Positions 49,701-51,029 are shown, counted from the whole stretch's first letter. The stretch is DNA of 63,423 nt, filler included, from Reclinomonas americana ATCC 50394 (GCA_048213135.1; 4 parts of one record of this genome joined end to end with filler, not necessarily neighbours in it); one strand, 5' to 3'. Notes: generated from the sequence alone by a model not told the origin. Program-made: numbers and translations.

Positions 49701-50791
49701 AGCACGACGACGGCATTCACGCGTTCTTCAGCGGGCCCGACAATGCGCAGATCGAGGAGGTCTACGACACAGTGATGTTTGCGATTGGACGCACGGCCGT
49801 CACTCAAGGCAAGTGGCGGTTACCGCCTCATTCCGTGTGCCAGTCCGCCGCTGCGGCCGCCGCTGCCCTCTCATCACGCTTGCACGAATCGTTAGGTGTT
49901 AACTTGGCGGCGGCCGGCGTTGAGACCGACCCGTCCAACCAGAAGATCCACGCCAACAAGTGGGAGCAGACCAATGTGGCGCACATTTACGCCATTGGCG
50001 ATGTGCTGTATGTTGCGTTGCTCCCGAGATGTAGATACACACACGCCACTTGTCTTGCTCACTCCTCTTGGTCTCACGATTGCAGGGCAAGTTGGAACTG
50101 ACGCCAACAGCCATCCAGGCCGGCAAGCTGCTCGCCGGTCGTCTGTATGCCGGCGCCACCAAGCTGATGGATTACGCCAATGTGCGTGTTCTTTCTTTCT
50201 CTCGTGGTGCGCGTGTTGGCTGACGCGCACTTTGCAGGTGCCGACGACGGTGTTCACACCGCTCGAGTACGGCTGCGTGGGCATGAGCGAGGATGAGGTG
50301 CGGGAAAAATTCGCACCGGAGAGCATTGTGGTGTACCGCAACGCGGCCACACCACTAGAGTGGTCGCTGTCGGAGAAGCGCTCCAAGGGTGTGATGTACA
50401 TCAAGTTGATCTGCAATCGTGACGACGACGAACGTGTCCTCGGCTTCCACATTTTGTCGCCCAACGCCGCCGAAATCACACAAGCCGTCGGTCTCGGCAT
50501 CCGGCTGCGTGCGCGAAAGGAGGACTTTGATGATCTCGTCGGCATTCACCCGTCGGTGGCCGAGCTGATGACCACATTGCATATGACGGAGCTGGTCTGT
50601 GTGTTTGGAAGGGGTTTCCCACTCCTTTGCCCCTCCCGTGGCAAGCTGACTGTTGTCTTTGTTTTTTTTCACAGCCGGAGGGTGCTGGCGGCTGCTCCAC
50701 CTGAGGTACACCCACTGTTGCATTCTCATTCACACACACACGCCAGCAGCTGCTTACATGTCTATATTTGCTGTTGCGCATCACAGGATAA
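46746..50791 (+). CDS. TXNRD: High-Mr thioredoxin reductase, predicted selenoprotein ending GGCSTUG*
   Basis: [61 protein letters not shown]; in-frame TGA at 50702 followed by G|GA TAA after splicing. Confidence 0.93.
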
Positions 50792-50962
50792 GCCTGCAGG
50801 TCGCGCCCTGCAGGCTAACCAGCTTCTGGTTTTTCGTCGCACGCATATTTTTCCATGTTTTGTTTCAAATGTCGCGGTGTTCTTTCCTTTTTTTCCCGTA
50901 GCCCTCTCTACTCCTGCTCTCCGTGGTGTGCCCATTATTGATGGCACGGCACGGACTTGCAT

Positions 50963-51029
50963 GTTGTCGTATGACGCACCCACTCTGAAACGGCAAACAC
51001 GCCGTCGAGTGGTGCTGATAACGGATAAT
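50963..51029 (+). promoter_or_regulatory. Eukaryotic SECIS element (type II)
   Basis: ATGA (50971), stem GCAC-C-CACTC / GAGTG-GTGC, unpaired AA(A) at 50988, mini-stem CGGC/GCCG, TGAT (51016), lower stem TTGTCGT/ACGGATAA. Confidence 0.9.

Follow-up and report, generated by a model that had tools for sequence, protein, structure and literature searches.

The C-terminal redox centres known from large (high-Mr) thioredoxin reductases (TrxRs) comprise the vicinal Cys-Sec pair of mammals (tail GCUG), the vicinal Cys-Cys pair of insects such as Drosophila (SCCS), and the widely spaced Cys residues of Plasmodium (CGGGKCG), the tail of Plasmodium falciparum TrxR being a spaced Cys pair of this last type. 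Research into the reason why TrxRs use selenium rests on the comparison of these vicinal Cys-Sec, vicinal Cys-Cys, and widely spaced Cys tails. In the selenoproteins SELENOT and SELENOH, a Ser residue directly precedes Sec. According to the accessible part of a review, Sec in the C-terminal centre is replaced by Cys in P. falciparum TrxR (PMC6155587), and the accessible sections of a further publication describe the TrxR of Karenia brevis as a GCUG enzyme that was made by a semisynthetic route (PMC13198884). A survey of algal selenoproteomes mentions the CxxU motif only for SELENOW in the portion of its text that was available (PMC7539508). A full-text literature search found no TrxR with a CxxU tail and no earlier cataloguing of such tails for this enzyme, the supplements of the algal survey (PMC7539508), which possibly contain TXNRD sequences, lying beyond this search.

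The gene described here is located in a 63,423-nt stretch of DNA of Reclinomonas americana ATCC 50394 (GCA_048213135.1), hereafter referred to as the window, which consists of four parts of one record joined with filler. Its predicted product shares with mammalian-type TXNRD1 (GCUG tail) the protein family, the domain order, the CVNVGC and GIHP..AE motifs, a similar length of the C-terminal extension, a penultimate Sec, and a SECIS element in the 3' UTR, but differs in that Cys and Sec would be two residues apart (C-S-T-U) instead of adjacent and the last Gly codon would be split by an intron. With the Plasmodium TrxR it has in common that the redox residues of the tail are spaced and not vicinal; there, however, four residues lie between two Cys and selenium is absent, whereas here two residues lie between a Cys and a putative Sec encoded by TGA. 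Tails of the CGGG-x-CG form also occur in the homologues P0066, P0080, P0087, and P0100 collected in this study. The Cys-x-x-Sec spacing is the same as in the thioredoxin-fold selenoproteins SELENOW, SELENOT, and SELENOH, as far as these are described in the sources available, but their motif is situated at a helix start inside the thioredoxin fold, whereas the one found here would be carried by the flexible C-terminal arm of a non-homologous flavoenzyme. Family and recoding mechanism are known types and, judged from sequence, it is the spacing of the redox pair that differs.

Gene architecture

The + strand of the window between positions 46746 and 50791 carries a large, animal-type TrxR gene with many introns, whose exons were read from the sequence and checked by translation. 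The spliced translation of the 5' half starts with an ATG in exon 46746–46866 and continues through exons 47025–47061, 47134–47273, 47340–47460, and 47536–47671. Some of the coding sequence is concealed by an assembly gap within the gene (N run, 47738–48663), next to which lies a (CT)n tract. Downstream of the gap, translation revealed the middle exons 48665–48918, 49638–49808, 49896–50002, and 50086–50181, followed by the exon of the dimerisation domain (50238–50594), which encodes 119 amino acids and ends in ...HMTEL directly before the sequence GTCTGT. The intron at 49809–49895 is of the GC-AG type (AAG/GCAAGT...TTAG) and the other introns that were read are GT-AG introns. Intron lengths range from 56 to 158 nt, except for one intron of approximately 719 nt and the one that holds the N gap.

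When the exons were scanned singly against NCBIfam, the profile TIGR01438 (thioredoxin and glutathione reductase) was the best match for each of five exons, in collinear order. In the 5' half, 47135–47272 matched profile positions 1–46 (E = 7e-21) and 47342–47458 matched positions 48–87; the middle exons (48665–50181) gave matches at positions 144–227 and 230–282, and the dimerisation-domain exon matched positions 355–471 of 485 (E = 1.3e-37). Coverage of positions ~88 to 143 is only partial, the N gap being located in the gene. The scores of the five exons sum to approximately 409 bits, as compared to a curated whole-protein cut-off of 475.85, with the N gap and further exons outside this sum. 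For exon 50238–50594, TIGR01438 scored 129.9 bits, whereas the highest-scoring glutathione reductase model reached 89.4 bits. The spliced translation contains the FAD-binding GxGxxG motif (VIGGGSGG) in its N-terminal part, the N-terminal redox centre CVNVGC, which spans the junction of exons 47134–47273 and 47340–47460, and the GIHP..AE motif (GIHPSVAE) in the dimerisation domain. The collinear profile matches and the CVNVGC centre agree with the first-pass annotation of this DNA, which had recognised a selenoprotein TrxR.

C-terminal tail exons and SECIS-like element

Two more introns were proposed in the first-pass annotation to follow the dimerisation-domain exon, the second being joined as G/GA TAA. 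Both introns and the join are present base for base in the sequence, and we infer their splicing from comparison with relatives and from intron features. The first (50595–50674, +) is 80 nt long and has the form GTCTGT...CTGAC...TCACAG, with a pyrimidine tract and with CTGAC located 25 nt upstream of the acceptor. Its removal moves the reading frame into a tail exon at 50675–50705 (+), which reads CCG GAG GGT GCT GGC GGC TGC TCC ACC TGA G and thus contains the Cys codon (50693–50695), the TGA (50702–50704), and the first base of the last Gly codon (50705). The second intron (50706–50786, +; 81 nt, GTACAC...TCACAG) would split this Gly codon, as suggested by its GT-AG borders, its size, and the ends of two metagenomic loci described below (L001 and L079); the last coding bases (50787–50791, +) are GA, completing Gly, and the stop codon TAA (50789–50791). 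With 80 and 81 nt, both introns are inside the size range of the other short introns of the gene. The length of the second is a multiple of three and it is free of stop codons, and its retention would add 27 residues after Sec. A CTRAY branch site was not found in this intron and is likewise absent in five of nine other introns examined.

After removal of both introns the tail reads G-G-C-S-T-TGA-G-stop, in which TGA is the penultimate codon. The vicinal Gly-Cys-Sec-Gly ending is absent; the extension and the penultimate position of the putative Sec are kept, but the Cys is shifted upstream by two residues. Counted from GIHP, the C-terminus is 29 residues away, versus 30 in the common marine GCUG loci, and the putative Sec 28 versus 29 residues, which indicates that the Sec position has been retained and that it is the Cys that has moved. 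If the first intron is left in, the TrxR frame stays open for approximately 205 further codons to position 51212, through the 3' UTR and the SECIS-like element; no homology was found for this read-through frame (50595–51212, +).

Downstream of the gene, positions 50960–51031 (+) form a SECIS-like structure of the type II form, as determined by folding, by a loose pattern-and-fold scanner, and by two covariance models (R1 and R2). It consists of helix I, an ATGA at 50971–50974, a helix II of nine pairs, an unpaired AAA, a mini-stem of four pairs (CGGC/GCCG), and a TGAT at 51017–51020. The predicted fold of 50955–51035 has an energy of -27.4 kcal/mol (z = -3.5), and none of 200 shuffled sequences folded as well. 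Helix I starts approximately 172 nt past the stop codon, in agreement with the type II element that the first-pass annotation had placed approximately 170 nt past the stop; the ATGA is located approximately 180 nt past the stop and, in the spliced RNA, approximately 186 nt after the UGA.

The loose scanner detected 10 SECIS-like candidates on both strands of the window, and the SECIS pattern alone is therefore weak evidence. Of 48 TGA-tail loci given to the same scanner, 24 yielded a candidate downstream of the TGA, and L004, a locus with a Cys-form tail, yielded none; used by itself, the scanner lacks both specificity and sensitivity. Two covariance models were built: R1 from five SECIS elements of other protist TrxR loci (alignment A4) with the structure written by hand, and R2 from 13 elements gathered with R1, the window being outside the training set. 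Two MAFFT alignments of 20 and nine SECIS candidates (A2 and A3, respectively) were dropped for modelling because their 3' strands were out of register. Each model matched a single site in the window, 50960–51031 on the + strand: R1, applied to both strands, with an E-value of 0.17, and R2 with 22.6 bits, no non-standard pairs flagged, and an E-value of 0.012, which is modest and roughly calibrated. Applied to 56 loci (148 kb), R2 gave 19 matches, all of them on the + (coding) strand and 57–290 nt after the TGA; six of these 19 were outside the training set and scored 18–21 bits. In the alignment of the 19 sequences, which was fitted to the model, compensatory changes on both sides occur in 18 of 18 pairs, and 84.5% of the cells are paired, compared to 32–41% when the partners are slid.

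The Rfam database yielded no match to a SECIS family in 44000–53000 or in 50900–51080 at E-values up to 10; the best local match was flpD RNA (E = 2.2), over the AUGA/UGAU core. Since Rfam (release 15) also failed at E-values up to 10 to identify SECIS in any of 20 protist TrxR loci used as controls, with an in-frame TGA tail in 19 of them (16 of the C-TGA type), the miss at the element in the window says little. Three further SECIS-like hairpins detected by the loose scanner at 43316–43405 (-), 29847–29891 (-), and 59261–59304 (+) were not matched by R1 or R2 at E-values up to 10 and are probably due to chance.

Related tails in other sequences

When 1.84 billion representatives were searched in full by HMMER with the last large exon (50238–50594) as query, one close relative was retrieved, P0001, which is 76% identical over 114 residues and is encoded on a genomic contig of 1.4 kb from a separate assembly. 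Its sequence reads TTTEV, followed by 21 in-frame codons (Val...Gln) and by EEGAGGCAT-stop. Deduced from the protein sequence, on which the reading of P0001 rests, the borders of this insert would be GTN (Val) and CAG (Gln). The insert is evidently an intron that was read through, its length being divisible by three, and it occupies the position of the intron 50595–50674. The presence of an intron at the same site and of the same tail implies that E-G-A-G-G-C-x-T is conserved in the frame that splicing would give in R. americana. A search with P0001 as query recovered only P0001 itself, and a further search for longer relatives found none with more than 58% identity.

For a wider comparison, 80 TrxR loci on JGI metagenome contigs were each read across their first stop codon. 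TGA directly follows Cys in the tails of 71 loci, with the form C-TGA-G in 68 and C-TGA-S in three. The latter three, which stop after the Ser codon, are L034, L074, and L046 (tails at 1281, 1494, and 1609, respectively). Two loci, L001 (AGCAT) and L079 (GGGCSS), have C-x-x-TGA-G-TAA tails; in both, TGA GGT TAA is encoded without an intron and is exactly the product predicted for the window after the second splice. In L073, the tail reads VCAT-TGA-TAG, without the final Gly, on a contig that ends in poly(A) and hence represents a transcript. L004 has a tail of the Cys-x-x-Cys form (CAGCGF-TAA), and the tails of the remaining five loci were unreadable. SECIS elements are located 149 nt after the TGA in L001 and 126 nt in L073, whereas for L079 the 414 nt available downstream of the TGA yielded no SECIS with either the scanner or R2.

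A set of 284 homologous proteins contained 23 sequences that end in C-x-x, three of which were set aside (CC, CxC, and CxxC tails). The remaining ones fall into seven clusters with C-[ADE]-[ST] ends: P0036 (CET); the P0062 cluster (CES), with 30 members including proteins of the Symbiodiniaceae Durusdinium trenchii and Breviolum minutum; P0083, P0093, P0105, and P0133 (all CDT); and P0082, which is L001 itself. Apart from the latter these clusters, like P0001, are represented by protein sequences only, which end at that point, the codon after C-x-[ST] being presumed to be TGA. In each of the 12 C-x-x tails, Thr or Ser immediately precedes the stop or the TGA. In the last domain, L001, L079, L073, and the P0062 cluster show only 41–52% identity among themselves or with the window, and their tails vary in length, the putative Sec being located between 26 and at least 37 residues after GIHP. 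According to these comparisons, the C-x-x-TGA tail is a class that recurs in marine protists and in truncated database proteins of Symbiodiniaceae, and is no peculiarity of R. americana. The first-pass annotation had regarded it as a different class of redox centre, and its spacing was not encountered for TrxR in the literature searched.

A quick maximum-likelihood tree was calculated from 74 rows (166 columns) that represent a selection of the loci and proteins, with near-identical loci left out. The window and P0001 were joined with full support, and the other CxxU tails were scattered among the GCUG enzymes; a single clade of all 12 CxxU tails was not rejected by the AU test (p = 0.30). In the same tree, P0045, a sequence known as protein only with the tail CKGCGF, grouped with L004 (CAGCGF, 2314–2361; SH-aLRT 94), and the C-TGA-S locus L046 grouped with the Mnemiopsis leidyi protein P0254.

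Probable decoding of the TGA and proposed redox mechanism

Most probably, the gene encodes a high-Mr TrxR with the spliced tail C-S-T-U-G, in which UGA is read as Sec by means of the SECIS element. Decoding as Sec is favoured because, after splicing, Sec would occupy the penultimate position, with only Gly between it and the stop codon, which is the arrangement of the 68 canonical loci. Three other readings were weighed against it. Sec could be inserted while the intron 50706–50786 is retained, always or in some transcripts, so that 28 residues would follow Sec up to the same TAA; this would be compatible with the 81 in-frame, stop-free nucleotides of the intron and the missing CTRAY site, but it is unlikely, since in each of the 70 loci that encode Gly behind the TGA (the 68 C-TGA-G loci, L001, and L079) this Gly is the last residue, the GTACAC/TCACAG borders and the length of 81 nt fit the other introns of the gene, and long stop-free frames are common in the window (156 of at least 150 amino acids). 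If the TGA instead were a plain stop codon, the protein would lack a second redox residue, its end being GGCST, and the resemblance of the hairpin to a SECIS would be accidental. The negative Rfam result and the 10 patterns found by the loose scanner are in line with such a reading. A high-Mr TrxR requires a C-terminal redox pair, however, and C-x-[ST]-TGA tails recur in independent loci that possess a SECIS (L001 and L073), this hairpin is the sole match of the trained models on both strands of the 63 kb, and Gly and a stop follow the TGA directly once the tail is spliced; termination at the TGA is accordingly regarded as very unlikely.

An assembly error or a decaying gene copy, in which the true tail would be GCUG and the residues CST would stem from sequence errors in a gap-rich draft, is the remaining reading. 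The window does contain many N runs, one of them inside the TrxR gene, but the exons have open reading frames and match the family profile in collinear order, P0001, which comes from another assembly and is 76% identical, keeps GGC-A-T-stop, and L001 and L079 show the same architecture. This explanation is therefore considered extremely improbable.

In the preferred reading, a Sec-containing enzyme with both tail introns removed, the product would be a homodimeric, NADPH- and FAD-dependent high-Mr TrxR. Excision of the two short introns would yield an mRNA ending in Gly-Gly-Cys-Ser-Thr-UGA-Gly-UAA, and the SECIS hairpin would recruit the selenocysteine insertion machinery, by which UGA would be translated as Sec. 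Electrons would flow from NADPH via FAD to the CVNVGC disulfide in one subunit, then to the selenenylsulfide formed by Cys-x-x-Sec in the flexible C-terminal tail of the partner subunit, and finally to thioredoxin, a scheme that follows the one given for high-Mr TrxR in the accessible part of a published review (PMC6155587). In its oxidised state, the Cys-x-x-Sec tail, which has the residue spacing found in CxxC and CxxU proteins of the thioredoxin fold, would close a 14-membered ring, as compared to the 8-membered ring of GCUG.

Taking the related sequences into account, we lean towards regarding C-x-[Ser/Thr]-Sec(-Gly) as a so far undescribed natural class of C-terminal redox centre, the third in high-Mr TrxR, which would occur in several protist lineages including dinoflagellate coral symbionts, would unite selenium and a 14-membered ring, and would always have a hydroxyl residue before Sec. 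A natural Sec enzyme with thioredoxin-like spacing of two residues would fill an empty corner of the comparison of TrxR tails outlined above and, if the assignment is true, the C-x-[ST]-U enzymes would represent a natural experiment on why the vicinal GCUG enzymes depend on selenium. An enzyme of the CSTUG type should be open to the same semisynthetic route as K. brevis TrxR, as far as that route is described in the accessible part of the report (PMC13198884). It would also follow that public annotation cuts all such enzymes short: gene callers stop at TGA, and the active centre is consequently missing from the database entries. Truncation of this kind had been anticipated in the first-pass annotation and is borne out by database entries with a C-x-[ST] end, which include two named records from Symbiodiniaceae. 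The tail of the R. americana gene additionally needs two extra splices, one of them inside the last codon, and automated annotation is unlikely to find it.

No tRNA gene was found in the 63-kb window. At the gap edges (47690–47737, 45568–45590, and others), the N runs in the window border on (CT)n or (GA)n microsatellites. Other genes identified by Pfam matches are all located on the + strand and code for a class I aminoacyl-tRNA synthetase with at least two exons (3342–6141), a WD40 propeller protein (16074–17270), an EF-hand protein (28098–29435), and a protein kinase (39806–40876).
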